IMG/VR virus record: IMGVR_UViG_3300006204_000007
Coordinates: 14,960-78,959 of that record
DNA: 64,000 nucleotides
From: a virus
Lineage: Duplodnaviria > Caudoviricetes
Direction: 5' to 3' (one strand)
Positions within the stretch are counted from its first letter, which is position 1. The number at the start of each line of letters is the position of its first letter. Position numbers and translations under genes: made by a program. The notes beneath the pieces are model-generated. The model searched no databases. It worked only from the letters and a program-made list of their open reading frames with translations, and had not been told where the DNA came from. Of the stretch, positions 3,614-61,327 are shown piece by piece.

Positions 3614-6036
3614 ACCTTCATTACCTCCGCATAATAATTGTTTATGTAATCCTGCGCTTCTTTCTCGTAATCTACCCCGCCGTATGTCCTGTCCAGAGTA
3701 AATTTTTCCAGACGCTCTGACTCAAAACCGCACTGCCGCGCCTTTAATTCCCACCCAAACCTAAGATTCGGCGTTCCTTTGACAAGGAGGTAAGCCGGAT
3801 GCCTTTCTTCTACCCAAGCATCCCCTGCCCCATACTTTTGCAGAAATACTTGGTACTGGCAGTTCGTATTGACAGTCTCAAGGAAAATATCATCCACGAA
3901 TATGTAGCATGTCCCGTTTTCATCCAGCGTGGCTTCTCCAATATCTCCAAAATATGGTTTTGGGGTTTCGTAACAGTAAAGAAGCCGGTCTGAGTAGTCT
4001 TCTGTTTTTACTACTCTGTTTTTCTGACCTCCACTCGCAAAACCTCCGCTTGTGTAAAGCAATTCTTTTGTTGCTTCAAAAAACATTTCTTCGGATGCTC
4101 CAGAATCGTATGACATTGCTATCTTGTTCGCTCTGTAGTACGATGTATAATTGCTTTTTGATAGTTTTAAATAATTCGGAGCAAGGTATGAAGCGTCACT
4201 GCCATACTTAATATCAATTGAGCTTGTTTCGCTAGAGGATGTGCTTACTTTAAAAGAACCGCCTGTTATCTCCGCGCTGGCAGACTTTATCTCTCCTTCG
4301 AAATATCCATTTGTTGCTCTTAAACCATTTTTATCAAATCTACCTACCTCTAACCCATTACCATCATATACAACCAACGAACCGTTTTTGTTATTCAATC
4401 CACCAAGGTACAAATCAGTTCCACGGATGCTCCCTTTGTAAACCGTAAGACCTGTGTTGTCCATCCTCGTCAAAAGGTCGCCAGACGCGTTTACAAGGTT
4501 CAACACACCGTCTTCGTTGTTTATCCCACCAAGCGTCAGCGTGCCACTCCTTATCCAGTCTGCTACAATCCCTATTGCGTACAGGACATTCACTACCACG
4601 TTTCCATTTTTATCAAACCCTGCCGTGTAACTTTGTCCGCCGTCCGTTGAGATAAAAAAGCCGTCTATCGTCTGCTTATAGATGGTTTTGGAATCCTCCA
4701 GCGCGGGTTTATCGTGCAAATACACAATTCGGCTCCCGTCCGCCATATCCTCTACGGTGGTATGAAAACCCATGGCGTTCATTGCAAGCTGGTTCATTTG
4801 CTGCACGGCCTTATCATAAGTAGAAATTTGCTTTTCAGCGTTCTTTCTTGCTTCCGCCACTGCCGCCTGCACCGTGGGGGATATGTACTCGCTCCCGTTC
4901 CGCACTGGGTCTTCTGCCTGACATGATACTGCAGTATAGGCTCCGATCTTATACGATATCGAATTAACAATTGAATTATATACATTTCCATTTCTGTCGG
5001 ACACCATGACAACCTCAAACGGCTCATACAAGGGATTGCCAAGTATCTGAGCGGAGAACGGCCGGAATGTAATTCCAACCATACGTCCGCCAAGATACGC
5101 TGCGACTTCTGACTCCTTCCCGTCCACGAATGGATTGCCTTTTACAACAATCGCATACCCCTCTTCTCCAAACAGGGCCGTCACGCCGTCCTTGCCGATC
5201 ACCTTTACCCCTGTGATTACCACGTCGTCCGTATGAACATTAAGGGATTTAATGCGGAAAATGTGTTCCGGTCGCGGGTCGGTGAACTCGCCGCCAGACA
5301 CGTGCTCTCCCTGTCCGTAATTGGTAAAGTCCCCTCCGTCAAGTATGGTATCGTGAGGGTAGGTCTTAAAGCTCCCACCATTGTAATTGTACCAATTAAG
5401 AAGAGACGTGTTGTACCAAATTAACTGCATATAGCCGTCATTGTCGATTCTGGCATTGTGCCCGGACACTTGACAGGCATATGACAATACTTGTCTGTAA
5501 GTCAGATTTTCCGGCTTTTCTTTTACAGTGTAGGTATAGTTGTCAAACTGCTGGAAACCCGCTGGTATGCCGCAGTCAAGACATATATCAGATATAATAC
5601 TCTGTAAGGTGGCCGGATAAACCGTAGTCGCGGCGTAAGGCCGGTCAAGACGGTACATAGCGTCCACTGCGGATATCTCTATAATGCCCCCCTGAGTCTG
5701 CGGCACTGTGGCGTAGTACTTTCCTTTACGGATTTTCTCGATTGTACCATCATCCAAAAGCATGGCAACATAGATTACGATAGTAGACATGTAAAAATCA
5801 TAAGAAGAAAACCGCTCGTCATCGTTTTCCAGACGGATATTCAAAGTCTTTCCAATACAGAACCCGACACCAAACTTTCCGTCAGAAGTCTTGTCCTCAA
5901 TTTGACAGCCGCCGATCATAAAATCTCTTGGTTCAAGATGCAGTACGGTACCGTCTGACAGAGTCACGTCTGCATAATTTACGACCGCCGCGCCGTTTTT
6001 TAGTTTTTCCTTAAATTCCTTACTTGCATTTATCAT
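3610..6036 (-). CDS. Tail tip/baseplate hub (Tal-like) protein
   Basis: 808 aa after Dit-like gene; paralog at 54680..57304 with a conserved N-terminal ~500 aa and divergent C-terminal part. Confidence 0.75.
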   Translation of the reverse strand: MINASKEFKEKLKNGAAVVNYADVTLSDGTVLHLEPRDFMIGGCQIEDKTSDGKFGVGFCIGKTLNIRLENDDERFSSYDFYMSTIVIYVAMLLDDGTIEKIRKGKYYATVPQTQGGIIEISAVDAMYRLDRPYAATTVYPATLQSIISDICLDCGIPAGFQQFDNYTYTVKEKPENLTYRQVLSYACQVSGHNARIDNDGYMQLIWYNTSLLNWYNYNGGSFKTYPHDTILDGGDFTNYGQGEHVSGGEFTDPRPEHIFRIKSLNVHTDDVVITGVKVIGKDGVTALFGEEGYAIVVKGNPFVDGKESEVAAYLGGRMVGITFRPFSAQILGNPLYEPFEVVMVSDRNGNVYNSIVNSISYKIGAYTAVSCQAEDPVRNGSEYISPTVQAAVAEARKNAEKQISTYDKAVQQMNQLAMNAMGFHTTVEDMADGSRIVYLHDKPALEDSKTIYKQTIDGFFISTDGGQSYTAGFDKNGNVVVNVLYAIGIVADWIRSGTLTLGGINNEDGVLNLVNASGDLLTRMDNTGLTVYKGSIRGTDLYLGGLNNKNGSLVVYDGNGLEVGRFDKNGLRATNGYFEGEIKSASAEITGGSFKVSTSSSETSSIDIKYGSDASYLAPNYLKLSKSNYTSYYRANKIAMSYDSGASEEMFFEATKELLYTSGGFASGGQKNRVVKTEDYSDRLLYCYETPKPYFGDIGEATLDENGTCYIFVDDIFLETVNTNCQYQVFLQKYGAGDAWVEERHPAYLLVKGTPNLRFGWELKARQCGFESERLEKFTLDRTYGGVDYEKEAQDYINNYYAEVMKV

Positions 6037-6404
6037 ACTGGATTAATCACCACCGCATTAAATGATAGGCTTTCCCATGTATCACGCCCGTTTACATGTT
6101 TCAAACTTCCAAAAGGATAATTTGATGTATAAAACTGTCCAACCGTCCATTGACCTGTAAGAGGATTAAGATACCGCAGACTGTATTCGCTTTTGTTCAT
6201 AACCTGTGCCAAGATAAGCGCAGCTTCTTCCGGCTCTATGTACTTCCACTCAAAGGAATAGCTCGAGATCGTTCCTATCGGCGTATTGTGCATCACCAAA
6301 TCTTGTGTTCTGTCCGAATCTTCCGTGGAAGTCGTGGCGAAATTTGGCTTGAACGTATCTGGCGTTTTGACTGGTATTCCGTTAAATTCAAATGGTCTGT
6401 CCAT
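6033..6404 (-). CDS. Distal tail (Dit-like) protein
   Basis: Position right after the tape measure gene; paralog at 57301..57672. Confidence 0.7.
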   Translation of the reverse strand: MDRPFEFNGIPVKTPDTFKPNFATTSTEDSDRTQDLVMHNTPIGTISSYSFEWKYIEPEEAALILAQVMNKSEYSLRYLNPLTGQWTVGQFYTSNYPFGSLKHVNGRDTWESLSFNAVVINPV

Positions 6405-6413
6405 AACACCCTC

Positions 6414-9400
6414 CTACGTCGTTCCAAGGTCAAACGGATTTCTTCCACTAGCCATCATCCGTGTCTTACCTTCTTCTATAATCATGTCAAATATCACCCC
6501 GCCGTTTGCTATTGCCTTTACACTGTATGTATTTCCACCGTTGCTACCGCCGTTTCCTACTGCGCCTACCTTTGCCATAGCATTTATAACAGCCTGTTCA
6601 ATCGTAGATAACGGAGACACAACCTCTGTTTCACGCGGATTATCTCCCAACCATGCCAGATGTCGTTTCATGCTTGTAGGAATGACCTGTCCCGTTGCGT
6701 ATCCCGGTATCTCGATGTTTGCCAGCTTTGCAATCGCGGGGTGGACGGATGGAGCCGACATGGAGCGCATGGAGTAGGATCGGGCGGAGTAAGTCTGGCC
6801 AGAGTCGCCTCCACCGCCACTAAAGAAGTCTCCTACTTTTTCCTTCATATTCCTGAATCTATCAATAATCTTATCTATCTGGTCAGTTATCCAGCCAACC
6901 GCCCTTTCTATCGTTCCTGTTATTCCGTCAAATACCGTCTCTACAATGTTCTTTGCGTGTTCCCACGCGCCAGACCAATCACCTCTAAGAAGGTCAGCAA
7001 CAAGCCCCACTGTGTCCTTTATAACATCAAATAAACCACCGATTACATCTATTACCCATCCTACTAAATCAATAGTTGTGTTGAAAACTTCATCTATTAT
7101 AGGGAGAAGCACAGGGAGAATTGTGTCAACAATCCATCCCGCTATCGGAATAAGAACATCTTCCCACAAGGCTTTCAAAAGCTCCATCAACTTATCGATG
7201 CACGGCTTAAGGTGTTCCTCCCAAAGCTCCTTAAATTTCTGTCCCCATTCTTCAAGCATTGGCTTAAGATTTTCCTGCCAAAACTCTATAAATTTCTCCT
7301 TAAGTTCCTCCACTTTCTGCCGAAATTCTTCTGAGGTCTGGTATCCGTAAACAAATCCCGCCGCCAACGCAGCTACAGCCGCAACTACAAGACCAATCGG
7401 TGATAATAAAAACGATATCACACCACCAAGACCAGATATTGCGCCAGAAAGAATTGTAATAACGGGGTGTAGTAGGGAAAGCGCACCCTTTAACATGTTT
7501 GCTACGCCAGAAAGCGCAGAAAATCCTGTTGATATAAACGTAAGTGCCGCCCCTGCACCCTTAAGCGCAATTATAGCAATAGCAATCTTTTCAAAGCCAT
7601 CCGCGACTTCCTGCGGACTGACATTGTCCATCCAGTCTTCTATCATTGCGAGAAAATCTTTAAGAGCCTGACTGTTTAGGAATCCGGCCAAAACCTCTGA
7701 CAATCTTCCTATAAATATTATGAGTCCTTCGCCCACCGTCTCCGCAAATGGTTCCAAATGTTCCCAGAGTTCCGCAAAATTTGCCCTAAGAGATTCCCAG
7801 TCAACCATTTCATTAAAATCAATAAACACTTGCAGTAAATCCGGCAATCCTTTTTCTAAAACCCATTGACCAATCGGAAGAAGTACTTTCTCGTAAAAAT
7901 CCGTCATTATTCCGCTCAGAGTATCAATGACTGGTACAAGTGAAGCTGTCCACTCTTCAAATTTTGTAAGAAGTGGGGAAAAATCTATTTTTGAAGACCA
8001 TTCTACGGTTGCATCTGCGGCATGTCGTATATTTTCAACAATCGCGCCGATTATGTCCCGTATATTTTCAAGAATATGTAACCCCGTGTCGTTCTCGTTC
8101 CACGCTTCCCTGAACTTTCCCGCAAGATTACCAACCACAAGCCCGATATCGCCAATGATATGCAATATATTCTCGAATATCCTTATAGTACCCTCTTGCT
8201 GCCATACTGTAAGGAAATCACGCCCTATGTCTTTAATCAGTTTCCATACTTCATCAAGGGCGTATTTCCATGAATCCATGACAAATTTTCCTTCTCTGCT
8301 CCAAGCCTCCTTAAGAGGATTAAACAGACTTGTCAAGATTCCTTTTACTTTCTCGGCCATCTGCCTAAATTTATCTGATAAGCCTGATTCATCTATATTT
8401 GGCTTAACATTGACTTCCATATCCAAATTACCGAGGTTCCAAAAGTCAATATTTTCCAAATCAGACAATAACTCATCGTCTTTTCCTGCTGAATATTTGT
8501 TTATTTCATCAAGAGGGGACAAATATCCTTCCAGTGACTTCTCTGCATCCTGCGCCGCGTCAGATACATCTTCAAGTGAGCCAGTTATTCCCTCGGCGGT
8601 ATCAACATATTTATTTCCCGCTCCAGAACCGCCAGAAGAACTTTTCCCGAAAAACGATTCCGTAAATGACTTAAAAGCATTCGCTACTACCTTTAACTTC
8701 TCCAATAAGGTATTAAGCATTTTCAAAAGAGGATTAAGTACATTTATAAGTCCCTGGCCGATGGTTGCCTTAAGGCTTTCGATCTGCAATTTCAGAATCC
8801 TTGTCTGGTTCGCCCAGCTATCCTGCGTGCGGATAAAGTCGCCGGAAGCGCCGGACAGTTTTTCGGTAACAAACTGATACCGCAATGCGACTTTTTCTAG
8901 CTCAGTCATTTTGCTTACGGTTTTTCCTATACCCTTTGCCATTGCATAGGAATTAAGAGCGTTTTCCGTCATGACAACGCCAAGGTCTTTTAGAGTCTCC
9001 GTTTCTCCTGTAAAAACGGATTTCAGCTTTGTGTAGGCCTCGTCCTGGGATATGTTATAGAAGGATGCAACATCACCAGCCAGCTGCGTAAGCGTAGTTG
9101 ACATTCCAAAAGCTGCATCTTCCGCAAACCCAAATGATTTCGCCATTGCCCCGAATGTTCCAGCGTAACGCTTCGCCATTGTTTCGGACAAACCCGCAGA
9201 TTTCGCGGCGTTTATGGCAAATTCATTTATCTTGTCCGACATGGTGGTAAATGTAACATCAACTACGTTCTGCACTTCTTCCAGATCGGAACCCAATTCT
9301 GTCATTGATGAAGCAAAACCAGCGATTTTTCGTACAGCAAAAACAGAAGCTATAGTTGCGCCGAGGTTCCTGAAAGAGTCAGATACGCCGTTTACGCTCC

Positions 9401-9641
9401 CTTTTATCTTTGATGCTTCTTTTCTAATTCCGGCCCCGACACTTCTAAATTTGCTCCCAACACTTGAAATTTTGCTGTTAAGTCCAGACAACGCGCCTTG
9501 TACGCCGGATTTAAGCTGTCCAAAACCACCTTTCATTTCGGACACTCCTTTTTTTATTCCTTCTGTATTAATTTTTGTATTTATCCGAATTGACCCGTCA
9601 TACTGTGCCATAAAACCACCCGTAAAATAAAAAAGTGCCAC
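6414..9641 (-). CDS. Tape measure protein (probable start ATG 9611, MAQYDGSIRI)
   Basis: >1000 aa helical protein with Trp-spaced repeats; same N-terminus as 57685..61188. Confidence 0.92.
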   Translation of the reverse strand: MALFYFTGGFMAQYDGSIRINTKINTEGIKKGVSEMKGGFGQLKSGVQGALSGLNSKISSVGSKFRSVGAGIRKEASKIKGSVNGVSDSFRNLGATIASVFAVRKIAGFASSMTELGSDLEEVQNVVDVTFTTMSDKINEFAINAAKSAGLSETMAKRYAGTFGAMAKSFGFAEDAAFGMSTTLTQLAGDVASFYNISQDEAYTKLKSVFTGETETLKDLGVVMTENALNSYAMAKGIGKTVSKMTELEKVALRYQFVTEKLSGASGDFIRTQDSWANQTRILKLQIESLKATIGQGLINVLNPLLKMLNTLLEKLKVVANAFKSFTESFFGKSSSGGSGAGNKYVDTAEGITGSLEDVSDAAQDAEKSLEGYLSPLDEINKYSAGKDDELLSDLENIDFWNLGNLDMEVNVKPNIDESGLSDKFRQMAEKVKGILTSLFNPLKEAWSREGKFVMDSWKYALDEVWKLIKDIGRDFLTVWQQEGTIRIFENILHIIGDIGLVVGNLAGKFREAWNENDTGLHILENIRDIIGAIVENIRHAADATVEWSSKIDFSPLLTKFEEWTASLVPVIDTLSGIMTDFYEKVLLPIGQWVLEKGLPDLLQVFIDFNEMVDWESLRANFAELWEHLEPFAETVGEGLIIFIGRLSEVLAGFLNSQALKDFLAMIEDWMDNVSPQEVADGFEKIAIAIIALKGAGAALTFISTGFSALSGVANMLKGALSLLHPVITILSGAISGLGGVISFLLSPIGLVVAAVAALAAGFVYGYQTSEEFRQKVEELKEKFIEFWQENLKPMLEEWGQKFKELWEEHLKPCIDKLMELLKALWEDVLIPIAGWIVDTILPVLLPIIDEVFNTTIDLVGWVIDVIGGLFDVIKDTVGLVADLLRGDWSGAWEHAKNIVETVFDGITGTIERAVGWITDQIDKIIDRFRNMKEKVGDFFSGGGGDSGQTYSARSYSMRSMSAPSVHPAIAKLANIEIPGYATGQVIPTSMKRHLAWLGDNPRETEVVSPLSTIEQAVINAMAKVGAVGNGGSNGGNTYSVKAIANGGVIFDMIIEEGKTRMMASGRNPFDLGTT

Positions 9642-9723: not shown

Positions 9724-9756
9724 ATTGTACCATTATTTGAGAATGAATTTGTACCA
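9724..9756 (-). promoter_or_regulatory. TGGTACAA-N19-TACAAT promoter upstream of tape measure gene
   Basis: Box 9749..9756, -10 at 9724..9729, exact 19-nt gap. Confidence 0.8.
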
Positions 9757-9800: not shown

Positions 9801-10790
9801 TCAACCATTACGTTTTCTTGCAGGAGTTTCAAACGCTTTTTCGACTCCCCACCCCAAGACCTTGATCCGCTGTCTGATGCAGTCGTAATCCATGCCCAGT
9901 TCCGCACACCATTCTATCAGTGTCTTATTCTGCCCATTGTATTCTAAAACCCATTCCCTATTCTTCCTGTTTCGTTTTCTAATTTCCCTTATTCTTTTCA
10001 AATCCTCTTTTTCACTTGTTTCTGCTTTATCGCTTATTTTTTTATACAATAACGGGAACTCTTCTGAGAACCATTTCCAAAAATCTTTATGCGTGTGTTC
10101 TTCTGCAATTTTGCGAACTTCCGCCGCATCCTCAATGTAATAGTAATCGCCAAGATAATAACGTTTCCCTTTGAATATAATTTCTGACGTCCACGTTCCC
10201 CTGTCGTTTCTTTTCTTAACGCCCTTAAATCCAGATGTATTATTTTTCGGTATTTTAGACGTTATAACAAACGCATTCGTCCCGTCTTTTGAGTATTCAT
10301 CATATACTCTCTTCGCTATTTTTATATTATTTTTCCGTGATTCTTCTTGCAAATGCCCACATGATTTTCTGATTTTAAAATCGTTTGTTGCAACGTCAAA
10401 TTGCTTCCCACATGTGCAAAGACAGCGCCAGACATAACATGTACCATCCTTTTCCCCTGTATTATAAAGAGCTTTTACTCCGTATTTGTTCGTTTTTCCA
10501 GTTAAATCTGATTGATAAAATAGATTTTTTTCGTTAACATGCCCGCAACTTGTTGTTTTCTCAGATTTTATGCTATCATATCTAATTTCACACTTTTTAC
10601 CACACGAGCATACACATTCTGCATATTGTTTGTCTTTGTAACGATATACAGAGTTAATTTTTAACTCTCCATATTCTTCGTTTTCGTGTCCTTGCATGTA
10701 TATTTTACCGTTTTTACAATCATAGCAATACTTTGATCCGTTACTTTTTGCATTAAATTCATTTCCGCAATTTAGACATATTTTAATCAT
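9801..10790 (-). CDS. AP2-domain DNA-binding protein of homing-endonuclease type
   Basis: NNTSGFKGV...WTSEIIFKGKRYYLG AP2 motif, CxCxCG repeats, C-terminal YNG..KTL.EW NUMOD-like segment. Confidence 0.7.
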   Translation of the reverse strand: MIKICLNCGNEFNAKSNGSKYCYDCKNGKIYMQGHENEEYGELKINSVYRYKDKQYAECVCSCGKKCEIRYDSIKSEKTTSCGHVNEKNLFYQSDLTGKTNKYGVKALYNTGEKDGTCYVWRCLCTCGKQFDVATNDFKIRKSCGHLQEESRKNNIKIAKRVYDEYSKDGTNAFVITSKIPKNNTSGFKGVKKRNDRGTWTSEIIFKGKRYYLGDYYYIEDAAEVRKIAEEHTHKDFWKWFSEEFPLLYKKISDKAETSEKEDLKRIREIRKRNRKNREWVLEYNGQNKTLIEWCAELGMDYDCIRQRIKVLGWGVEKAFETPARKRNG

Positions 10791-21563: not shown

Positions 21564-21588
21564 TTCTCTATCCCTCCCGATTTCCTAT

Positions 21589-21621
21589 ATTGTACCGCAG
21601 TTTTTCTGGGTAGTTGTACCA
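21589..21621 (-). promoter_or_regulatory. TGGTACAA-N19-TACAAT promoter
   Basis: Box 21614..21621, -10 at 21589..21594. Confidence 0.8.
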
Positions 21622-21630
21622 AGTTAAAGG

Positions 21631-22102: not shown

Positions 22103-22135
22103 ATCATACCATGATTCAATAAATTATTTGTACCA
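22103..22135 (-). promoter_or_regulatory. TGGTACAA-N19-TATGAT promoter
   Basis: Box 22128..22135, -10 at 22103..22108. Confidence 0.8.
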
Positions 22136-27486: not shown

Positions 27487-27519
27487 ATTATATCATAATC
27501 AAACGAAAGATATGTACCA
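27487..27519 (-). promoter_or_regulatory. TGGTACAT-N19-TATAAT promoter
   Basis: Box 27512..27519, -10 at 27487..27492. Confidence 0.75.
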
Positions 27520-31291: not shown

Positions 31292-31324
31292 ATTTTACAA
31301 CAGATTCGGGCGGGGGTTGTACCA
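31292..31324 (-). promoter_or_regulatory. TGGTACAA-N19-TAAAAT promoter
   Basis: Box 31317..31324, -10 at 31292..31297. Confidence 0.8.
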
Positions 31325-33672: not shown

Positions 33673-33705
33673 ATTTTAATATAAATTGCAGATTCAGTTG
33701 TACCA
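33673..33705 (-). promoter_or_regulatory. TGGTACAA-N19-TAAAAT promoter
   Basis: Box 33698..33705, -10 at 33673..33678. Confidence 0.8.
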
Positions 33706-40077: not shown

Positions 40078-40629
40078 TCATTCTCCCTTACCCCTCTCCA
40101 ATTCTTTCAATGCGGCTTCGGCTTCTTCTCTGGTGAGGAAATCGGTCTTGCCGATTTCTCTTACTGCAAAAGTTCCCGTAATACTTCCGTTTGAATTTGT
40201 ATAGTAAACAACAACTTGGTCTAAAATCCTTTCTTCTTCCCAGTCATCATCATTCATACTTCCGAAAGAAAATCCCGCAACCTCATAACTGTATGGTCTG
40301 CCAAAATCAATATCCCAAATTATATCCCCCGCCGCACAAGGAAGTTTCAACAGTTTCCCTTGTTTCTCTGCCTCTTTCCATTCCACGAACTTTTCTGCAT
40401 CTTCTTTTTCAATGAACAACGCCAAATGATTAAGAGATTCCTTTATCTGACCTTTTTCATTCCAAATTCCCGCCCAGCTCATAGGTCTTACTGCATATCT
40501 GCCTCTATCTGTTTCGCAAATTATTGGTTTATCCATATTTCCCTTTCCCTCCACAATCCCCCTAAATCCCCTAATTCTATTGTACAGGAGATTCATAGGG
40601 GAGTTGTACCAAGTTAATCTGCTATCCAT
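40078..40629 (-). CDS. Hypothetical protein (real start probably near 40537)
   Basis: EKQGKLLKLPC..GD...FLTREEAEAAL motif; a promoter lies in the 5' part of the called ORF. Confidence 0.7.
   Translation of the reverse strand: MDSRLTWYNSPMNLLYNRIRGFRGIVEGKGNMDKPIICETDRGRYAVRPMSWAGIWNEKGQIKESLNHLALFIEKEDAEKFVEWKEAEKQGKLLKLPCAAGDIIWDIDFGRPYSYEVAGFSFGSMNDDDWEEERILDQVVVYYTNSNGSITGTFAVREIGKTDFLTREEAEAALKELERGKGE
40579..40611 (-). promoter_or_regulatory. TGGTACAA-N19-TACAAT promoter at the head of the late region
   Basis: Box 40604..40611, -10 at 40579..40584. Confidence 0.8.
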
Positions 40630-41246: not shown

Positions 41247-41501
41247 CTAATCCTCTTCCACCACTTTCAAAAGGCTCTTCCTTGCTGCATAATAATGTGT
41301 AATCTGCCCATATTTCCCAGCTTTTACCGCCACAAGCATTCTGTCAATGGTGCTTTTATCCTTATCAATCTTTGAATGGCTTCTCTTTGCGCTGGCCGGA
41401 ATATGTTTTCTTACGCTCGTTCCAGCCGGAATATCCGCAATGATAACACCACGTTTTTCCGTCCATGAACTTATCCAAACAACCTTATCTCCTATTTTCA
41501 T
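41247..41501 (-). CDS. Small hypothetical protein
   Basis: Coupled to the upstream stop. Confidence 0.65.
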   Translation of the reverse strand: MKIGDKVVWISSWTEKRGVIIADIPAGTSVRKHIPASAKRSHSKIDKDKSTIDRMLVAVKAGKYGQITHYYAARKSLLKVVEED

Positions 41502-42667
41502 TTCCCTATCTCCTTCATTTTCTCGTTAAAAATACTAAAGAAATATCTCCTAATCCCATAAAAATCTGTCCGGCAGTATGGAATCCGCTCCATTTCTTTC
41601 AGCTCCCATTTCACCCTTAAGGCGTCATAGGACTTGTTTTGAGTGACAGACAGTAAAATGTACTCTGCAATCGTTTCATTGGCTCTATGAGCCGCCTGTG
41701 AAGCTAGAGAGGCATATCTGCCGGACTGTATGTACTCTGTAAGTTGCCTGTACCGCTCTTTGCTGATTCCATAATACTGCCAAGAATGCCGGGGAACTGA
41801 ATGGTACTGCGGTTGTGGCAGTTCGTCTGCTTTCCCCCATTGTTCAGCCATAGCTTTTGCAATACTAGGGAATGTCTTGCTTCGTATTTTTGCTGTTTCT
41901 GGGTCGTTGTATCTCATGATTTTTCCGAAATCATCTTTTGTCATAAACCCAAGTAGTTTCCCGTCCGGACTTACCTGTTGATTCTCTTTCCTTTTTCTTT
42001 CGTCCCAGATAATATCCGTAGGGTGTAACTTTTGAAGTCCTTTAAGCCAAAGGCAAGTACCTTTTGACGCATTGTGTCCAAACATCCAGGGTTGAATGAT
42101 TTGGTCTGGCTTTCTATATTCTGTTGACATTATCCCCACTGGGTTCTCAATTGCTATCCTTTCACAATCGGCATTTACGAACTGCATAAAGAATTGTTTG
42201 CCTTTTTCTCTGTTCTCTGCCCTTTCAATCGCTTTATCTCCGTATTTCTCAACATCAAACCAGCGATTTCCAGCTACCGTCAGATATGTACAAGGCGGAA
42301 AAGCTATAATCATATCCCATTTCCCATAAATCCTATGTTCTATGCCGTCCACTGTCCGAAAACTACAATCGCCATTCAGCAAGGGGAGTACATCGGCTTG
42401 TATATGCCATTCTGGGTGTCCTCCGCTGCAAGGTTCTATGTCGCAGGAATAGGATTCATGTCCTAATCGCCGGAACTCCATGCAGACACGCTGGCTCTCT
42501 TCACACGCTACTAAAACTTTCATATGCTGTTTTATTTCCTGTTCAAAGATACTAAGCTGCCTAAATCCACTGTACCTCTCACATGATTCTTTCTTCCCTG
42601 TACATCCCTCACATTTGCATACATTCAAGCATGTCCGGCATAGGCAGGTGTGGCATTTTCTGCGCAT
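41498..42667 (-). CDS. Fusion: Cys-rich N-terminus, C5-cytosine methyltransferase-like domain, putative late transcriptional activator domain
   Basis: MKVLVACEES (from nt 42523), FPPC, IENP, RSKTF..IAKAMAEQWG; C-terminal YGISKERY...IPYCRTDFYGIRRYF. Confidence 0.75.
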   Translation of the reverse strand: MRRKCHTCLCRTCLNVCKCEGCTGKKESCERYSGFRQLSIFEQEIKQHMKVLVACEESQRVCMEFRRLGHESYSCDIEPCSGGHPEWHIQADVLPLLNGDCSFRTVDGIEHRIYGKWDMIIAFPPCTYLTVAGNRWFDVEKYGDKAIERAENREKGKQFFMQFVNADCERIAIENPVGIMSTEYRKPDQIIQPWMFGHNASKGTCLWLKGLQKLHPTDIIWDERKRKENQQVSPDGKLLGFMTKDDFGKIMRYNDPETAKIRSKTFPSIAKAMAEQWGKADELPQPQYHSVPRHSWQYYGISKERYRQLTEYIQSGRYASLASQAAHRANETIAEYILLSVTQNKSYDALRVKWELKEMERIPYCRTDFYGIRRYFFSIFNEKMKEIGK

Positions 42668-52203: not shown

Positions 52204-52236
52204 ATGATACCTTACGAAAGACTGGACATTGTACCA
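52204..52236 (-). promoter_or_regulatory. TGGTACAA-N19-TATCAT promoter upstream of the lysis genes
   Basis: Box 52229..52236, -10 at 52204..52209. Confidence 0.8.
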
Positions 52237-54683: not shown

Positions 54684-57304
54684 ATTTTTAATGCCTCCTT
54701 GTAAAAACTTTCTATGTAATTTTGTGCTTCTTTCTCATAATTGATAAATTCTTCTGGTTCTTCCTGCACAAAATTTTCCATTCTTTCTGTTTCAAATCCC
54801 AACTGCCTTGCTTTTATTTCCCATCCAAATTTAAGGAAAGGAGTTCCTTTAACAAGGAAGTAATTCGGTTTCCTTTCCTCCACACACACATCCCCTTGCC
54901 CGTATTTTTGCAGGAATACCTGATACTGGCAGGATGTATTTATGGTTTCATAAAATATGTCATCTATGGATATGTAACATATTCCATTTTCATCTAGTGT
55001 AGCTTCCCCGATATCCCCAAAATATGGCTTGGTGGTTTCATAGCAGTATAATAGGCGGTCGGAATAATTTTGAGTTTTTGCAAGGCGTGATTTACTTCCG
55101 TCTGCCAATAAATATCCATCCACAGATAAATTTTTAAGTTTGCAAAGCTGCGTAGTTCCATTATCTGAAAGAAACATTTGAGAGCCGATGCCTATTCTGC
55201 ATCCATAATTACCTCCTCCAAACATTTTTATATCATTTCCTATGTTTAAATTTGTTTCACCATTTGCCAAATATTTTGCAATATATATTCCTCCAAATTT
55301 TATATGTGCAGTTTCCTCATCTTTAAAACTAATTTTGTTTTCTCCTACAAAATTTATAGTATTATATTTTTCGCCGTTTCCTCCTTCAAACGCAAGAATT
55401 TCCAAAAGTTTTTGTTCGTTTTTTGTTACATAAATTCCCGAAATTCCTATTTTAATTTCTGAACTTCCATATATGTACACAGTTCCATTGAATTTGGAAT
55501 CAACAGCTCCTATATTAACGTATTCTTTTGAATCACTATTAATTTTTAATCCAGTGGCAGAAATAGCTGTGAATGAATCACCAGTGGTATATCCACATCT
55601 AATAGATAACGCTGACATACCAGTTTGCCACCCTCCACTTCTTAAAATTATTCTGGAATCTTTTTCGTTGCTTGTATGAATGTTGACGATTCCCCCGGTA
55701 ATATTCGCAGAATTAGTGGTAATTCCATCTTTATCAAATCTTCCTATCTCATTTCCTTTTGCATCATAAATCACACACGAGCCATCAATATTGTTATCGC
55801 CGCCAAGGGTAAGAGTGCCGCCTTTTATCCAGTCGGCTACAATGCCAATCGCATAAAGGATATTTACTACTGCATTTCCGTTTTTATCGAATCCGGCCGT
55901 ATAGGTTTTCCCCCCGTCAGTTGATATAAAAAACCCGTCAATGGTCTGTTTGTAAATTGTTTTTGATCCTGCTAAACTTGGCTTATCATGGAGATAAGTT
56001 ATAACACTTCCGTCCGGCTGTTTTTCTACCGTTGTATGGTATCCAAGGGCGTTTCCGGCAATCTGCGTCATATTCTGCACGGCCTTGTCATAAGTGGAAA
56101 GCTGTTTTTCTGTGTTTCTCCGCGCTTCCACAACTGCGGCCGCCGCTTCAGAATAATACATGCTGCCGTTCCTGACCGGGTCTTCCGCTTCGCAGGATAC
56201 TTGCGTATAAGAACCGACTGTATAGGAAACGGAATTTATTATCGAAACATACACATTCCCTTTCCAATCCGACACCCTTACTACTTCAAAAGGTTCGTAA
56301 AGAGGATTATTTAATATCTGCGCGGAAAAAGGCCGGAAAACCATGCCAACTATGCGGCCGCCAAGGTAGTTTGCTACTTCCTGCTCTTTTCCTGCTGCAA
56401 AAGGATTTTTTACTTCAATCAAATATCCTTCTTCACCAAATATAGCAAAATTATCGTCTTCGCCAATTACTTTAACTCCCGTAATCTGCACATCATCCGT
56501 ATGCACGTCAAGAGATTTTACACGGAATATATGTTCCGGCATATCTGAAAAATTGCCGCCAGAAATAATGGTGTTTGTGCTGTAATCCGTAAAATTGCCG
56601 CCGTCAAGTATGGTATCATGAGGATATGTCTTAAAATCCCCACCAACATAATTATACTGCTCCAATAATGCGGAGTTGTACCAAATTAACTGCATATATC
56701 CGTCATTGTCTATCCGGGCGTTATATCCGGCTATCTGGCAGGCATAGGAAACAATCTGCCGGTAAGTTCCCGATTCCGGCTTTTCCTTTACGGTAAAAGA
56801 CATATTATCAAACTGCCGGAAGCCTATGGGGATGCCGCAGTCAAGGCAGGCATCCGTGAGAATTGTCTGCAAAGTGGCCGGATATGAGGTTTTGCTGGTG
56901 GAATAGTCCTTATCCAGCAAAAACATTCCATCTACTGCATTGATTTCTATGATTTCCCCTTTTGTAGACGGAATCGTGGCATAATACACTCCTTTGCGGA
57001 TTTTTTCTATGGTTCCATCATCCATGGCCATTGCGACATAAACGCGGATTATGGAGTTATAGAAGTCATATCTGGAGAACCGTTCATCATGGTTTGCAAT
57101 CTTTATGGCCAATGTCTTCCCAACCACAAAACCTACACCAAATTTACCATCTGTGGTCTTGTCTTCTATGCTGCATCCTCCTATCATGAAATCCTTTGGT
57201 TCCAAGTGCAGGACGGTACCGTCTGACAGAGTCACGTCTGCATAATTTACGACCGCCGCGCCGTTTTTCAGTTTTTCCTTAAATTCTTTACTTGCATTTA
57301 TCAT
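54680..57304 (-). CDS. Tail tip/baseplate hub protein
   Basis: Paralog of 3610..6036. Confidence 0.75.
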   Translation of the reverse strand: MINASKEFKEKLKNGAAVVNYADVTLSDGTVLHLEPKDFMIGGCSIEDKTTDGKFGVGFVVGKTLAIKIANHDERFSRYDFYNSIIRVYVAMAMDDGTIEKIRKGVYYATIPSTKGEIIEINAVDGMFLLDKDYSTSKTSYPATLQTILTDACLDCGIPIGFRQFDNMSFTVKEKPESGTYRQIVSYACQIAGYNARIDNDGYMQLIWYNSALLEQYNYVGGDFKTYPHDTILDGGNFTDYSTNTIISGGNFSDMPEHIFRVKSLDVHTDDVQITGVKVIGEDDNFAIFGEEGYLIEVKNPFAAGKEQEVANYLGGRIVGMVFRPFSAQILNNPLYEPFEVVRVSDWKGNVYVSIINSVSYTVGSYTQVSCEAEDPVRNGSMYYSEAAAAVVEARRNTEKQLSTYDKAVQNMTQIAGNALGYHTTVEKQPDGSVITYLHDKPSLAGSKTIYKQTIDGFFISTDGGKTYTAGFDKNGNAVVNILYAIGIVADWIKGGTLTLGGDNNIDGSCVIYDAKGNEIGRFDKDGITTNSANITGGIVNIHTSNEKDSRIILRSGGWQTGMSALSIRCGYTTGDSFTAISATGLKINSDSKEYVNIGAVDSKFNGTVYIYGSSEIKIGISGIYVTKNEQKLLEILAFEGGNGEKYNTINFVGENKISFKDEETAHIKFGGIYIAKYLANGETNLNIGNDIKMFGGGNYGCRIGIGSQMFLSDNGTTQLCKLKNLSVDGYLLADGSKSRLAKTQNYSDRLLYCYETTKPYFGDIGEATLDENGICYISIDDIFYETINTSCQYQVFLQKYGQGDVCVEERKPNYFLVKGTPFLKFGWEIKARQLGFETERMENFVQEEPEEFINYEKEAQNYIESFYKEALKI

Positions 57305-57672
57305 ACTGGATTTATCCCCACTGCATTAAATGATAATGATTCCCAAACAAAATGGCTGTTTGATACCCTTAAAGTTCCCAAGCTGTAATTTGATGTGTAA
57401 AACTGGCCCGTTTTCCAACCGCCTGTTACCGGGCTTAAATACCGCATGGTGTAGCCGCTCCTGTTTAGTATTTGGCCGATGATTTTAGCCACTTCCTCCG
57501 GCTCTATGTACCTCCATTCAAACGCATAGCTTTCTATCGTTCCCATGGGCGTGTTGTGCATTACCAAGTCTTGCGTCCTGTCCGAATCTTCCGTTGATGT
57601 CGTTGCCATGGATGGACGGAAGGCATCTGGCGTTTTGACTTTTATTCCATTAAATTCAAATGGCCTGTTCAT
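57301..57672 (-). CDS. Distal tail (Dit-like) protein
   Basis: Paralog of 6033..6404. Confidence 0.7.
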   Translation of the reverse strand: MNRPFEFNGIKVKTPDAFRPSMATTSTEDSDRTQDLVMHNTPMGTIESYAFEWRYIEPEEVAKIIGQILNRSGYTMRYLSPVTGGWKTGQFYTSNYSLGTLRVSNSHFVWESLSFNAVGINPV

Positions 57673-57684: not shown

Positions 57685-60600
57685 CTATGTTGTTCCAAGC
57701 GCAAACATATTGTTTCCTGTTGCCATCTGCTGAATTTTTCCTTCTTTTACCACTGACTCTGCAACTTGTTTTCCGTCAAGATATTGCTTTATAATGATTG
57801 TTTGCGGATTGCTATTGATCCTGTTTCCAGTTATTCCAAGTTCCGACAGCACTTCCAAAATAGATTCCCTGTTAGCTTTTTTTATTGTATCAAGCGGAGC
57901 CTCGACATTTGTACCATGTTTCTGATCGCCCAGTACGGCCAAAAATTCTTTGTTTGCCGGTATTACCGCTCCTGTGGCCAGCTTTGGTATTGGAGTGGTT
58001 CTTAGCGAATCAAACGCCGGACTTTGATACATTGACAAAGAAGCTGGTGTGAAAGAATAACTTCTCCCGTAAGAATAAGAGCTTGTGCTTCTGGATGAAA
58101 TTACCCGCGAGGTAAGGCTTCTTAAAGAATTGCCAAGCGATCCGATTGTGCTGGAAATCCATCCAAATACGGAACTTATTGTATTTTTTACCGAATCCAG
58201 CACGGAGCCGACCTTGCCCTGCATTCCTTCCCATGCCCGCGACCATATATTTTGCGCACTGGATGAAAAATTGCTGATCGCGCTTTGCATCCCGGAAAAT
58301 TTATCCCGGACGCTCCCGGCCATGGACTGCGCGGAGGATACTGCCTTTTCCTTTATATTGCCCCATGCGGATGCTGTTGTTTCCTTGGCTTTCGCCCATG
58401 CATTCGCAATATTGGTTTTTACATTTTCTGCCGACTCTTTTACGTTGGATTTAATATTTGTCCATGATTCCTTTATTCCATTTTTCACATTATCAAACGT
58501 GGCCTTTGCGCCGGATTTTATATTGTTCCATTTTTCGGAAAGGTTCTGTTTGATGCCATCCCAAACTTGCGATGCCGTCTGCTTAATGGAATTCCAGGTA
58601 TTTCCAAGAAAATCCTTCACCCCATTCCAAATATTGACCGCAGTTTCTTTCATCCCTTCCCATATGGCTTTTACATCGCCTACAAGGCTCAATATGCCGT
58701 TCAACAGGCCTTGGATGATGTATTTTCCCATTTCGGCCATGACGGTGGACGGGGAGTGGATGCCGAAAAGGGATTTGAATGCATCCATAAAAGGTTTGAA
58801 TATATGGTCATGTATCCAATCTCCGATTCCGACTATAGCATCCACAATTCCCTGCATAAGTCCAAAGATTATATCTTTACCAATTTCCCATATTCCAGAT
58901 ACTATAGTTCTAATTCCTTCTACAAATCCTTCAACAACAGTTTGCAATCCCTTAAAAGCTAATTCCCAATCTCCAGAAAAGACTCCTGTTAAAAAATCAA
59001 TAATTCCTCCTATAACCGTTATAATAGAATTTATAGCATCTGAAACATATCCTACAAATTTTACTAATTCATCCCATACAGCCTTTATAACTGGAAGGAT
59101 TTTAGGAAGAACATTATCTATAATCCACGCAATAAAAGGTTGCAATATGTTTTCCCATAAAGCTTTCAACAAATCTGCAACTTTACCCAAAAGTTCAATA
59201 AAATTATCAACCATTGGCTGTATATGGGTTTTCCACAATTTGTCAAAATCTTTTGCCATTTGTTTAAGAATTGGTTGTACTTTTCCATTCCAAAAATCTA
59301 AAAATCTTTTAACTAAATCAGATAACCCATCAGCAATCGAATCAAAAAACGGTTTAAAATGTTCATCATACACTTCATTCAGTTTGTCAAACGTATCATC
59401 CACCGCATCCTTTATAGTTCCGGCCACATCTGCCAGGACTCCAAGAAACCCTTCTAAAGCTGTGCGGAACCCTTCCTTGTTTTCCACAAATGGCTGTATA
59501 AATATATTGAGAACATCCCTTATAAGTTTTGATGCAAGCTCCGTCACTCCCATAAATGCATCCGTAAATATGCCAATAAGGTTTGCGGTAAGCCGCTGGC
59601 CATCTTCGCTTGCAAATGCTTCAAATACATATGCAAAGGACTGGAATAAGTCTGATAACAGGTAGTTTACTTCTTCCCATATGTCAAACATAGAAACAAG
59701 ATGATCTTTTATCCTTTCCTTATTTTCTTCCAGGTATTTTGCAATGCCGCCTACAATGTTAGTAGCAATCGTCAGCCCTATGCTTGCCGTAGCACCGACA
59801 AGGCTGCCCAACATATACGCGACAGATTTCACGAAACTGTCTGCGGCAGAAATAACTTCCGGGTTCGTAAAAATATCCTTAAGACTTTCCTTTATGGATG
59901 CTATGCTGTCCTTTATGGAGTCCCACCGATACTCCCAATCGCCCAGCCCGTCAAAAAAGCCCTGTTTGAAAATCCCGGCCAACTCTTTCAATTTCCCTAT
60001 TAAACCGTCGGCCGATTCGCTTACTTTATCTAGGACATTTTCACCCTCTGCGACCTTACCATAATCTATATTTTCAATTTCACTGATATTTCCAATGTCT
60101 ATCCCTGCTTCCGGTTGCTCTAAATCAGCAAGTTCTTCATTTTTACTGAATTTGTTTATTTCATCAAGAGGGCTTAAATATCCTTCTGCGGCTTTTTCCG
60201 CATCTTTGGTTGCATCGGCCACTTTTTCTGTAGATATTGCCAAATTATCTGCCGCGTCTGCCGCATCATTATATCCGTCAATGGAGTCACCTAAACCGCC
60301 TCCAGCCATTCCGGCTTTTGCCGCCACTCCGCTTCCTGCAGAAGCTTTTTTGCCTGTTATTAACTCCGTAAAAGATTTAAAGGCATTGGCAACCGTTGCA
60401 AGTTTTTCAAGCAATATATTGATAACCTTTATAGCAGGCGTAAAGATATTGATAAGTCCCTGTCCTATGGTTGCCATTAAGCTTTCAATCTGCAATTTTA
60501 AAATTCTTGTCTGGTTTGCCCAACTGTCTGATGTACGGATAAAATCCCCGGATGCTCCGGCAAGCTGGTCTATCACAAATTGATACCTTAAGGCGACTTT

Positions 60601-61188
60601 TTCCTGCTCCGTCATTTTGCTTGTAGTTTTCCCGAAACCATTGGCAAGAGCGTACTGGTCAAGAGCAGCTTGCGTCATGACAACGCCAAGTTCTTTCAAT
60701 GTCTCTGTTTCTCCCGTAAATACGGATTTCAGCTTTATGTATGCTTCGTCTTGCGAGATGTTATAAAAAGATGCAACATCCCCTGATAATTGCGTCAGAG
60801 CAGTAGACATCTTATAGGCTTCATCCTCCGCAAAACCAAAAGATTTTGACATGGCACCAAACGTACCGACATACCTTTTTGCCATGGTTTCCGATAAACC
60901 GGCAGATACGGCAGCGTTTTTTGCAAATTCATTCACTTTTTCTGACATGGTGGTAAATGTCACGTCCACAACATTCTGCACTTCTTCCAAATCAGAGCCT
61001 AATTCTATGGCTTCTTTTCCGAACTGAATAAGTTTTTTTACAGCAAAAACAGAAGCAAGTAGAGCGGCAGTACTTCTTGCAGCTTCGCTAATACGGCTTA
61101 AAGACCCCCTTACCGCTGATTCTCCACGCCTGATTCCATTTGTATCAATTTCTGTATTTATCCTTATGCTTCCGTCATACTGCGCCAT
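57685..61188 (-). CDS. Tape measure protein
   Basis: 1167 aa with 11-residue Trp repeats; N-terminus shared with 6414..9641. Confidence 0.92.
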   Translation of the reverse strand: MAQYDGSIRINTEIDTNGIRRGESAVRGSLSRISEAARSTAALLASVFAVKKLIQFGKEAIELGSDLEEVQNVVDVTFTTMSEKVNEFAKNAAVSAGLSETMAKRYVGTFGAMSKSFGFAEDEAYKMSTALTQLSGDVASFYNISQDEAYIKLKSVFTGETETLKELGVVMTQAALDQYALANGFGKTTSKMTEQEKVALRYQFVIDQLAGASGDFIRTSDSWANQTRILKLQIESLMATIGQGLINIFTPAIKVINILLEKLATVANAFKSFTELITGKKASAGSGVAAKAGMAGGGLGDSIDGYNDAADAADNLAISTEKVADATKDAEKAAEGYLSPLDEINKFSKNEELADLEQPEAGIDIGNISEIENIDYGKVAEGENVLDKVSESADGLIGKLKELAGIFKQGFFDGLGDWEYRWDSIKDSIASIKESLKDIFTNPEVISAADSFVKSVAYMLGSLVGATASIGLTIATNIVGGIAKYLEENKERIKDHLVSMFDIWEEVNYLLSDLFQSFAYVFEAFASEDGQRLTANLIGIFTDAFMGVTELASKLIRDVLNIFIQPFVENKEGFRTALEGFLGVLADVAGTIKDAVDDTFDKLNEVYDEHFKPFFDSIADGLSDLVKRFLDFWNGKVQPILKQMAKDFDKLWKTHIQPMVDNFIELLGKVADLLKALWENILQPFIAWIIDNVLPKILPVIKAVWDELVKFVGYVSDAINSIITVIGGIIDFLTGVFSGDWELAFKGLQTVVEGFVEGIRTIVSGIWEIGKDIIFGLMQGIVDAIVGIGDWIHDHIFKPFMDAFKSLFGIHSPSTVMAEMGKYIIQGLLNGILSLVGDVKAIWEGMKETAVNIWNGVKDFLGNTWNSIKQTASQVWDGIKQNLSEKWNNIKSGAKATFDNVKNGIKESWTNIKSNVKESAENVKTNIANAWAKAKETTASAWGNIKEKAVSSAQSMAGSVRDKFSGMQSAISNFSSSAQNIWSRAWEGMQGKVGSVLDSVKNTISSVFGWISSTIGSLGNSLRSLTSRVISSRSTSSYSYGRSYSFTPASLSMYQSPAFDSLRTTPIPKLATGAVIPANKEFLAVLGDQKHGTNVEAPLDTIKKANRESILEVLSELGITGNRINSNPQTIIIKQYLDGKQVAESVVKEGKIQQMATGNNMFALGTT

Positions 61189-61205
61189 AAAATCACCCGT
61201 AAAAT

Positions 61206-61246
61206 AAAAAAGTGCCAGAATAACGTCAACACGTACTTACCGGCAC
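61206..61246 (-). promoter_or_regulatory. GTGCCGG...CTGGCAC hairpin plus U-tract in the tape measure leader
   Basis: Stem seen directly; equivalent to 9629..9669. Confidence 0.6.
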
Positions 61247-61294
61247 CGTTTAGCCGTTATCTACAACCGTTTATGCAGATCTCATATTTAATTT

Positions 61295-61327
61295 ATTTTA
61301 GCATGGTTTTTGAGTGGATTTGTACCA
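61295..61327 (-). promoter_or_regulatory. TGGTACAA-N19-TAAAAT promoter upstream of tape measure gene
   Basis: Box 61320..61327, -10 at 61295..61300 with extended TG. Confidence 0.8.

Follow-up and report, generated by a model that had tools for sequence, protein, structure and literature searches.

Many middle promoters of phage T4 depend on MotA and AsiA and carry, in place of the −35 element, a conserved box that keeps a constant distance to a good sigma-70-type −10. P2 Ogr, which is a Cys4 zinc-finger protein, and P4 Delta each represent a system with four dispersed late promoters that have a −10 and no −35 and are served by one small activator. Phage Mu C is likewise one small phage activator for dispersed late promoters (four) with a recognizable −10 and no −35 (PMC2582627, PMC4461284). 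The Ltr late activators of Gram-positive temperate phages (RinA, ArpU, LtrA/Sigma70_r4, LtrB/DUF1492, and LtrC) are small proteins encoded by the last early gene just 5′ of terS and are needed for the packaging, morphogenesis, and lysis genes. Their C-terminal domain has been modelled as sigma region 4-like, each is specific to the promoter of its own phage, and they bind 7-nt direct repeats 5′ of a single terS promoter (PMC3753634, PMC3152322).

The DNA discussed here is a 64-kb stretch (the window) that includes two gut Lachnospiraceae prophages, A and B. As in the Ltr systems, the gene of our candidate regulator closes the early module just 5′ of the terminase genes. The C-terminal domain of its product gives weak matches to sigma region 4 chains (VIA-align Z of 4 to 5.4; a Foldseek search of the candidate models gave nothing significant). 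The candidate family has no sequence or HMM relationship to the Ltr proteins (Pfam and NCBIfam negative; hhalign probability of 0.13 against 80alpha RinA), and, unlike in those systems, there is one 14-bp box at the −35 position of 9 to 13 predicted promoters per contig. The head promoter has no triple 7-nt direct-repeat array and the box occurs at 13 sites; the earlier note had already set many dispersed late promoters apart from the single RinA-type site 5′ of terS. Several dispersed late promoters with a −10 and without a −35 are also found with Mu C/Mor and P2 Ogr/P4 Delta, but those systems come from phages of Proteobacteria, their proteins are unrelated to the candidate, and the sites they bind are dyads with a centre near −43 or −55, whereas the box here is asymmetric and fixed 19 nt from the −10. 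A box in the −35 place at a fixed distance from the −10 recalls T4 MotA/AsiA; that system, however, requires a pair of proteins and works by remodelling sigma region 4, and no MotA or AsiA homologues were present among the proteins scanned. The box also lies 2 to 5 bp further 5′ than a sigma-70 or ECF −35. Our literature search found neither the box nor the candidate family described. Activator-dependent late promoters are already known, and in our reading the sites described here are another form of them.

A box on the late strand

A regular-expression search of both strands for TGGTACAW-N19-TANNAT recovered 12 matches in the window, all on the minus strand, and these are the 12 boxes that the earlier note had picked out by eye. 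The comparison that it had proposed, with the plus strand and with shuffled DNA, gave no plus-strand match and none in any of 100 dinucleotide-preserving shuffles. The bare 8-mer TGGTACAW occurs 19 times (3.2 expected), 18 of them on the minus strand. Two other matches turned out, as noted earlier, to be −10 regions of sites (at 5387 and 9725), and a third, at 5742, lacks a −10. One more site, the 13th, is found on this contig just outside the window, at window positions −1749..−1717, 5′ of the prophage A lysis genes, and is the homologue of the prophage B lysis-cassette site. The early region (48085-41247) has no sites, and all are found from the early/late boundary onward. The candidate gene and the sites, in window coordinates, are as follows.

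41498..42667, minus strand: candidate regulator gene, 389 aa; last conserved early gene, at the early/late boundary
40579..40611, minus strand: predicted head-of-late-operon promoter (box, N19, TACAAT), 887 nt 3′ of the candidate regulator gene and 5′ of a 152-aa gene and the terS-like and terL genes; a 10-nt inverted repeat flanks the −10
33673..33705, minus strand: predicted late promoter, 5′ of an int-alpA RNA motif (33600-33667) and a methyltransferase gene (33123-33575)
31292..31324, minus strand: predicted late promoter, immediately 5′ of a NUMOD4/HNH homing endonuclease gene (30735-31271)
27487..27519, minus strand: predicted late promoter with a complete TRTG extended −10, 5′ of an unknown gene (27012-27452)
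22103..22135, minus strand: predicted late promoter, just 3′ of a GIY-YIG endonuclease gene and an IS transposase; about 330 nt downstream have no clear ORF
21589..21621, minus strand: predicted late promoter, 5′ of a 155-aa gene (21096-21563), then head genes
9724..9756, minus strand: predicted late promoter, 5′ of the prophage A tape-measure gene (6414-9641) and directly following an HNH endonuclease gene (9801-10790)
5386..5418, minus strand: predicted late promoter within a tail gene (3610-6036, phrog_6616); in-frame internal SD-start at 5301
61295..61327, minus strand: predicted late promoter, 5′ of the prophage B tape-measure gene (57685-61188), with a terminator-like hairpin before it
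57884..57916, minus strand: predicted late promoter within the 3′ end of the prophage B tape-measure gene, 5′ of gene 57301-57672
56651..56683, minus strand: predicted late promoter within a prophage B tail gene (54680-57304), homologous to the 5386 site; in-frame internal SD-start at 56422
52204..52236, minus strand: predicted late promoter of the prophage B lysis cassette (small genes 51910-52173 and 51674-51913; endolysin 50878-51663)

The full motif is longer than first noted and reads tTTAAnnTGGTACAA, then 19 nt, then a Gram-positive extended −10. Its box, TTAAnnTGGTACAA, stands in place of the −35 element at these predicted late promoters and extends 5′ to TTAAnn, with A in 100% and 92% and T in 69% and 84% at the four positions of the 13 sites, which were not chosen by TTAA. 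In related phages GGTACAA occurs in 130 distinct contexts; TAnnAT follows after exactly 19 nt in 60 of them, and other spacings are at background; an N24 peak in the spacing test is a second, overlapping hexamer in the conserved head promoter. The −10 consensus over 63 related sites is TATGnTAnaAT. On our contig TGn precedes the −10 at 6 of the 13 sites, compared with 9.5% of background TAnnAT, and is missing from the other 7. The sites have no −35 hexamer: the mean best match to TTGACA 16 to 18 nt 5′ of the −10 was 2.46 of 6, against 2.53 of 6 in background, and a sigma-70 consensus scan did not flag sites 40604 and 52229. These features point to promoters that would have a −10 of the host sigma-A type and no −35. 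At 33673..33705 the Rfam int-alpA RNA begins 6 nt past the −10, which corroborates the predicted start; this is a single instance, since no int-alpA RNA was found 3′ of box promoters in three other box-bearing phages (G001, G003, and G004), nor by a regular-expression search in any of the loci retrieved.

The motif defines a phage regulon, not a host regulon. Three whole Lachnospiraceae genomes (4.0 to 5.3 Mb) have all of their TGGTACAA sites (6/6, 7/7, and 11/11) inside one prophage each, on one strand except for 1 of the 11 in genome G008, where the only site outside the prophage is a TGGTACAT variant. Cultured lysogens with the regulon include Lachnospiraceae bacterium JLR.KK009 (CP143549.1, prophage at about 5.217-5.253 Mb), Eubacterium sp. 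14-2 (NZ_KE159567.1), and strain 1XD21-87. Sites in 151 other Lachnospiraceae genomes are scattered, roughly at the level of the reversed-pattern control. The motif recurs in over 100 viral contigs. At 41 loci there are two to four sites, always on a single strand, and G003 and G004 have nine and six sites, respectively, each on one strand. Phages of the G001 type encode the family protein and have box promoters at two places, neither of them 5′ of the terminase genes.

The candidate regulator and its family

The product of 41498-42667 has a Cys-rich N-terminus (residues 1-48), an in-frame C5-methyltransferase-like insert of 232 aa (residues 49 to about 280, phrog_757) with its own Met at nt 42523, and a conserved helical domain that appears to resemble sigma region 4 (residues 281-389). 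Because it is split by this insertion, activity of the candidate in the window is uncertain; two other loci, L130 and L131, have intact ORFs of the same methyltransferase-inserted architecture, with box sites downstream. In most regulon phages the regulator is present without the insert, and the family consists of proteins of 77 to 150 aa, many with a predicted Cys-rich N-terminal metal-binding module. The family, with roughly 600 homologues in all, finds no sequence match in Pfam, NCBIfam, or PDB, and PHROGs lists it under “unknown function.” A Pfam search with 58 members at E values up to 0.01 gave no match to DUF1492, Sigma70_r4, Sigma70_r2, or Phage_antitermQ; an NCBIfam search at E values up to 1 matched no RinA/ArpU model; and tblastn of the regulator against GenBank phages (50,697 records) returned nothing. 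Host genomes have only two DUF1492 matches, both unrelated proteins of about 190 aa.

Family and motif occur together. Non-structural proteins common to four box-bearing phages are limited to RusA and the candidate family. A strict site lies 3′ of the family gene on the same strand in 17 of 21 genomic loci, the first of them 147 to 1192 nt after the gene, and the same 17 loci have no strict site upstream or on the opposite strand. The family was found in 25 of 30 multi-site viral contigs, including all 14 of those that are at least 90% complete; of 19 single-site contigs searched, 7 have it, and the 12 that do not were taken as chance matches. Diverged members keep the gene position between replication genes and terminase, and at 37 to 51% identity a GGTACAA box is still found just 3′ of the gene. 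The only covariation of box with regulator clade that was found is TGGTACAA against CGGTACAA, the latter in the P0144 clade. The family is broader than the regulon, with no recognizable box at L153 to L156 (remnant or other elements), at the remote members L150, L151, and L134, or at L129 (58% identity), and a crude word search of the loci of remote members gave no alternative box. The phages also share structural genes, so the co-occurrence is confounded by common ancestry.

AlphaFold confidently models the C-domain as a four- to five-helix HTH domain (pLDDT of 98, and 88 for the natural 77-aa form), with the conserved segment TDFYGxRR at the start of the last helix. VIA-align fold matches are weak overall, with Z scores of 4 to 6. 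The best match of the 77-aa form is SigR region 4 (Z of 5.4, rmsd of 2.5, 61 of 65 residues), in keeping with a tetra-helical HTH of the sigma region 4/LuxR type; for the 150-aa form, ISWI and Spt6 come out on top and sigma region 4 is prominent at a weak Z of 4 to 4.8. In each search roughly one in three of the top 50 rows is a sigma region 4 chain, and the modelled C-domain appears to resemble sigma region 4 as its best though weak match. The candidate has no sigma region 2 and so cannot be a complete sigma factor. A complete phage-encoded sigma factor was also rejected on the size of the proteins (77 to 150 aa), their lack of a Sigma70_r2 match, and the host sigma-A type of the −10.

The earlier note had named 41498-42667 and 29382-29654 as candidate activators; comparative evidence favors the former, and the latter is not supported as the primary regulator. 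The 29382-29654 protein has weak homologues in G004 and G001 and none in the complete nine-site phage G003, and it sits downstream of box promoters itself. P0001 (190 aa, 40622-41194), directly 5′ of the head promoter, was rejected because no relatives turned up in Pfam, PHROG, or PDB and because five related motif-bearing phages lack it. The terS-like protein (38853-39356), although it contains a Sigma70_r4_2-like HTH, lacks conservation among the related phages. The idea that GTAC methylation gates the box was not upheld, as GTAC is at an observed/expected ratio of 0.96 and most regulon phages are without the methyltransferase insert. The depleted words are instead GATC (0.36) and GGCC (0.46).

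Proposed mechanism and alternatives

We infer, with a probability of roughly 0.6, that temperate Lachnospiraceae siphophages use these sites as activator-dependent late promoters and that the box is read by the 77- to 150-aa family, represented in the window by 41498-42667. Host sigma-A RNA polymerase would read the extended −10 (TRTGnTAnnAT), and the missing −35 contact would come from a phage protein that sits on the 14-bp box (about −45 to −32) and touches the polymerase. This activator is most likely the product of the last conserved early gene, and once made it would turn on about nine promoters per phage genome, those of the packaging, head, tail, distal tail, and lysis modules and also of inserted homing-endonuclease and moron genes. 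The earlier proposal of a phage activator or sigma-like factor driving dispersed late promoters fits the strand and late-region restriction, the lack of a −35, the extended −10, the prophage confinement, and the conservation in diverged phages. A more specific version is doubtful: the 77- to 150-aa protein could be a free-standing surrogate of sigma region 4 that docks on the sigma-A holoenzyme in place of or atop region 4 and retargets it to the GGTACAA box 2 to 5 bp 5′ of the normal −35.

The promoters could also be activator dependent and the box be read by another phage protein, with the 77- to 150-aa family a syntenic passenger at the early/late boundary. Common descent as a confounder of the co-occurrence, the missing box near some family members, and the weak fold matches of the candidate all lend this something, yet we consider it unlikely: apart from RusA, the four box-bearing phages compared have no other non-structural protein in common, each phage has different genes in the interval from the candidate to the head promoter, with unrelated ones in G003 and G004, and no counterpart of the small HTH protein 29382-29654 was found in the nine-site G003. 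That no phage regulator is needed, the sites being constitutive extended −10 sigma-A promoters or promoters served by a factor of the host, for example an alternative or sporulation sigma, is improbable. Extended −10 promoters are able to work without a −35, and TGn is present at six sites, but the other seven do without it, and a fully conserved 8-mer plus TTAA at a rigid N19 implies a specific reader. Given the prophage confinement in three genomes and the control-level scatter in the 151 others, there would be no host regulon for a host reader to serve.

The least probable reading is that box and −10-like element form a loading site for a Q-like antiterminator, made up of binding and sigma-dependent pause elements, and not a promoter. 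A fixed distance between box and TAnnAT is also typical of Q systems, as at the lambdoid PR′; VIA-align also gives weak matches to Q21 (Z of 5.3) and lambda Q (Z of 4.2), and the nearest named ESM Atlas clusters include Phage_antitermQ (0.90), beside DUF1492 (0.90), both as leads only. Q systems, however, use a single constitutive promoter with a −35, whereas here 9 to 13 copies are dispersed over a contig and none has one. Several of the sites follow terminator-like hairpins or lie deep in long genes, where retention of sigma is unexpected, and 0 of 58 family members match the Pfam Phage_antitermQ model.

Implications for Lachnospiraceae phages

The Lachnospiraceae are a dominant gut family that is hard to culture, and to our knowledge late-gene control in their phages is essentially unstudied. 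The 14-bp box at its fixed spacing is a signature with which the late regions of these prophages can be located and oriented. The placement of the sites suggests that homing endonucleases and morons inserted in the late operon use this promoter type for their own expression. Neither Pfam, NCBIfam, nor the 50,697 GenBank phage records contain the regulator family, and its characterization would therefore annotate several hundred “hypothetical” proteins. Together, a 77- to 150-aa protein and a 40-bp promoter offer a testable on-switch for genetic tools in gut Clostridia. If the candidate is indeed a region 4 surrogate, this would amount to sigma appropriation by a single protein, widespread in phages of gut Clostridia, and in the methyltransferase-inserted variants the DNA-reading domain would also carry a C5-methyltransferase-like module to late promoters. 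Since the boxes of the two prophages are identical, the activator should also switch on the neighboring prophage, which would provide a mechanism for cross-talk between co-resident prophages.

Structure and genomic setting of the box sites

A pattern search of the window recovered all 12 TGGTACAW-N19-TANNAT sites that the earlier note had read by eye, each at its reported position and all on the minus strand, compared with no match in 100 dinucleotide-preserving shuffles. The 8-mer TGGTACAW alone has 19 copies (3.2 expected), 18 of which are on the minus strand; as had been stated, two copies beyond the boxes themselves coincide with the -10s of sites 5386 and 9724. The record is 78,959 nt long, the window being its bases 14960-78959, and a 13th site lies before the window start, at -1749 to -1717. 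This site and the 52204 site are homologues, each preceding the same small lysis-cassette gene. The motif first described, a box followed at 19 nt by a -10, is borne out, but its extent was drawn too short, and the 13th site lay beyond the stretch that was read. The 13 sites, which were not selected on sequence 5' of the box, share a TTAA two bases 5' of it (A at 100% and 92%, T at 69% and 84%). The consensus of 63 distinct sites from related viral contigs is tTTAAwwTGGTACAAmt ... A-rich ... TATGnTAnaAT. Spacing is rigid, with TAnnAT at exactly 19 nt in 60 of 130 distinct GGTACAA contexts from related phages; no other distance rises above background, apart from one produced by the conserved head promoter, where a second hexamer overlaps the first.

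There is no -35 element, the best TTGACA match at 16 to 18 nt averaging 2.46 of 6 versus 2.53 for random TAnnAT. A TGn precedes the -10 in 6 of the 13 sites (background, 9.5%), and scanning for the sigma-70 consensus does not pick the sites out. On these features, with the spacing and the consensus, the -10 half resembles the extended -10 of Gram-positive sigma-A promoters, and the part 5' of it is a specific 14-bp box spanning roughly -45 to -32.

Features of prophage A, in which transcription runs along the minus strand
49554-50666, plus strand: integrase
48372-49151, plus strand: cI-like repressor
Next: recombination and replication genes (RecE/Cas4-like exonuclease, RusA, replication initiator)
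41498-42667, minus strand: ORF between the replication genes and the terS-like gene
Then, in order: terS-like gene, terL, portal, minor capsid, head, and tail genes
30735-31271: HNH homing endonuclease, late region
24346-25749, opposite strand: DDE IS transposase, late region
22481-23071: GIY-YIG endonuclease, late region
9801-10790: second HNH homing endonuclease, late region
6414-9641: tape measure
Beyond the window start: lysis genes

Prophage B is present on the contig only as its tail-to-lysis end (64000 to 50878). The early region contains no site, and every site lies from the early/late boundary onward. Most are close to gene starts, as had been proposed, 20 to 110 nt 5' of a Shine-Dalgarno-led start, and three lie within long tail genes. 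Predicted box promoters directly precede or follow three of the four inserted selfish genes (two HNH, GIY-YIG, and IS transposase). The arrangement fits a late region divided into modules that each begin transcription anew from one type of promoter. Within 5301-5418 and 56422-56683 (minus strand), the box promoters inside two homologous tail genes (phrog_6616) are followed by in-frame internal Shine-Dalgarno starts. The predicted C-terminal products would be 563 and 580 residues long, with the caveat that only in-frame starts can yield long ORFs there.

The predicted head promoter of the late operon carries a 10- to 12-nt inverted repeat (CTCCCC..ATCTCC / GGGGATTTAGGGGGA) flanking its -10 (window 40553-40607). 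The whole 60-nt promoter, dyad included, is kept in about 18 related prophages, and the dyad, which has no counterpart at other box promoters, may be an extra operator.

One site allows a check on the start of transcription. An int-alpA RNA motif (Rfam RF02996; 33600-33667, minus strand; 43.3 bits versus a gathering score of 35.8) occupies the leader of the methyltransferase gene at 33123-33575, and its first base is 6 nt past the -10 of site 33673-33705. That base coincides with the transcript start expected from this promoter, an independent check from a single instance; the related phages examined gave no match to the motif.

The late region also holds a tRNA-Ile gene (anticodon TAT; window 20320-20395, minus strand). 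Since there are two integrase genes (window -4236 to -3220 and 49554-50666) with early or late phage segments on both sides, the contig holds parts of three prophage-like units in tandem, which could reflect true polylysogeny or an assembly join. Over the whole contig GATC, GGCC, and CTAG are strongly depleted (observed/expected, 0.36, 0.46, and 0.33), suggesting restriction avoidance unrelated to the box. GTAC is not depleted (0.96), and the earlier idea that methylation of the GTAC in the box gates the promoters finds no support.

Distribution among phages and hosts

The pattern TTAAnnTGGTACAA-N19-TAnnAT occurs in at least 106 IMG/VR contigs; among the matches listed, 41 fetched stretches have two to four strict sites, always on one strand. 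The related phage G003 (complete, 60.4 kb) has nine sites and G004 has six, all on the coding strand. A second phage group, of about 42 kb and GC 0.38, has the same box with structural proteins only 23 to 56% identical to those here. At homologous sites the box and the -10 are kept, and the spacer and upstream flank vary (52204 versus -1749; 9724 versus 61295).

The hosts, Lachnospiraceae of the mouse gut, include Acetatifactor, Hungatella, and Eubacterium sp. 14-2. Three whole genomes (4.0 to 5.3 Mb) each have their TGGTACAA sites inside one prophage (6/6, 7/7, and 11/11), on one strand but for a single site among the 11 in G008; the small number of other matches are TGGTACAT variants elsewhere. 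Across 151 Lachnospiraceae species genomes the strict pattern is found zero to three times per genome, scattered over contigs and strands about as often as a reversed-pattern control, and a six-site, one-strand cluster appears only in the genome with a known prophage. A host factor reading the box would therefore have no host regulon. To judge by this distribution, the box sites are phage-specific, not host.

A candidate regulator family

The prophage A proteins common to G003, G004, and the GC-0.38 phage G001 are all structural except RusA and one other family, represented by ORF 41498-42667, which is the likely regulator on these comparisons. Of the two activators suggested in the earlier note, this ORF is the one favoured; the other, at 29382-29654, is unsupported, not being found in G003. 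The latter is a small, HTH-like late protein of 90 residues, weakly conserved in three box-bearing phages (minus strand; G001 26021-26182; G004 21521-21700), lies directly downstream of a box promoter in G001, and may be a second-tier regulator. The 190-residue product of gene 40622-41194, directly 5' of the head promoter, was rejected because it is not conserved.

Residues 1-48 and 281-389 of ORF 41498-42667 align end to end with 150-residue proteins of G003 and G004 at 78 to 89% identity. The intervening residues, 49 to about 280 (window 41828-42523, minus strand), form a complete C5-methyltransferase-like unit (phrog_757) that starts at a Met of its own; this in-frame insertion splits a Cys-rich N-terminus from a helical C-domain. 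Loci L130 (383 residues), L131 (385 residues), and probably L133 have the same three-part architecture as intact ORFs; those in Eubacterium sp. 14-2 and another genome have box sites downstream. The family numbers 615 close homologues and 182 clusters at 50% identity; many are C-domain-only proteins of about 100 residues. It has no sequence match in Pfam, NCBIfam, or the PDB and no relative in 50,697 GenBank phage records; its sole annotation match is PHROG 11237, "unknown function."

A strict site follows the homologue gene on the same strand, the first one 147 to 1192 nt past the stop codon, in 17 of 21 genomic loci encoding one, and none of the 21 has a strict site upstream or on the other strand. 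Members are encoded in 25 of 30 multi-site viral contigs, among them every one of the 14 with completeness of 90% or more, a co-occurrence that is not independent evidence because the phages are related. Of 19 single-site contigs searched, seven encode a member and come from the same phage groups; the 12 lacking one are, in our reading, chance matches. Even at 51%, 38%, and 37% identity, members still lie between replication genes and terminase, and a GGTACAA box, which reads CGGTACAA in one clade, comes shortly after each. GC-0.38 phages have a 77-residue form, consisting of the distal helices only, and the same TGGTACAA box. The box is absent near members in remnant elements and near some remote members. 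Between its 77-residue homologue and its terminase genes, phage G001 has a hammerhead ribozyme of type II (Rfam, 58.5 bits; L107:19072-19139, minus strand).

AlphaFold2 models the 150-residue protein with a five-helix C-domain (pLDDT 98) and a Cys-rich N-terminus (pLDDT 53-65), and the natural 77-residue form at pLDDT 88. Foldseek returned nothing significant for these models. With VIA-align the top match to the 77-residue form, a weak one, is SigR region 4 (Z 5.4, rmsd 2.5, 61/65 residues), followed by LuxR-type EsrB (Z 5.0), SigE region 4 on -35 DNA (Z 4.7), and SigA region 4 (Z 4.6). Sigma region 4 chains make up about a third of the best 50 rows with the 77- and the 150-residue form alike. 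Other matches include Q21 at Z 5.3 and lambda Q at Z 4.2. The matches, weak but thematically consistent, suggest rather than establish a sigma region 4-like fold class. The last helix opens with an almost invariant TDFYGxRR segment, at what would be the position where region 4 proteins contact DNA.

Proposed mechanism and relation to known systems

Functionally, the closest systems are the Ltr activators of Firmicutes phages (PMC3753634, PMC3152322), along with Mu C, P2 Ogr, and T4 MotA. Tests of Ltr membership, where run, gave no model match, an hhalign probability of 0.13 against RinA, and no triple direct repeat. Ltr proteins serve a single terS promoter (PMC3753634, PMC3152322), whereas here one asymmetric box recurs at a fixed distance in many promoters.

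We propose that early transcription would arrive at the regulator gene and that the HTH domain of its product, predicted to resemble sigma region 4, would bind TTAAnnTGGTACAA; the extended -10 would be occupied by sigma-A holoenzyme, and the activator would stand in for the missing -35 contact. Since the boxes are identical and the regulator of prophage B itself lies outside the contig, a single activator should switch on prophages A and B alike.
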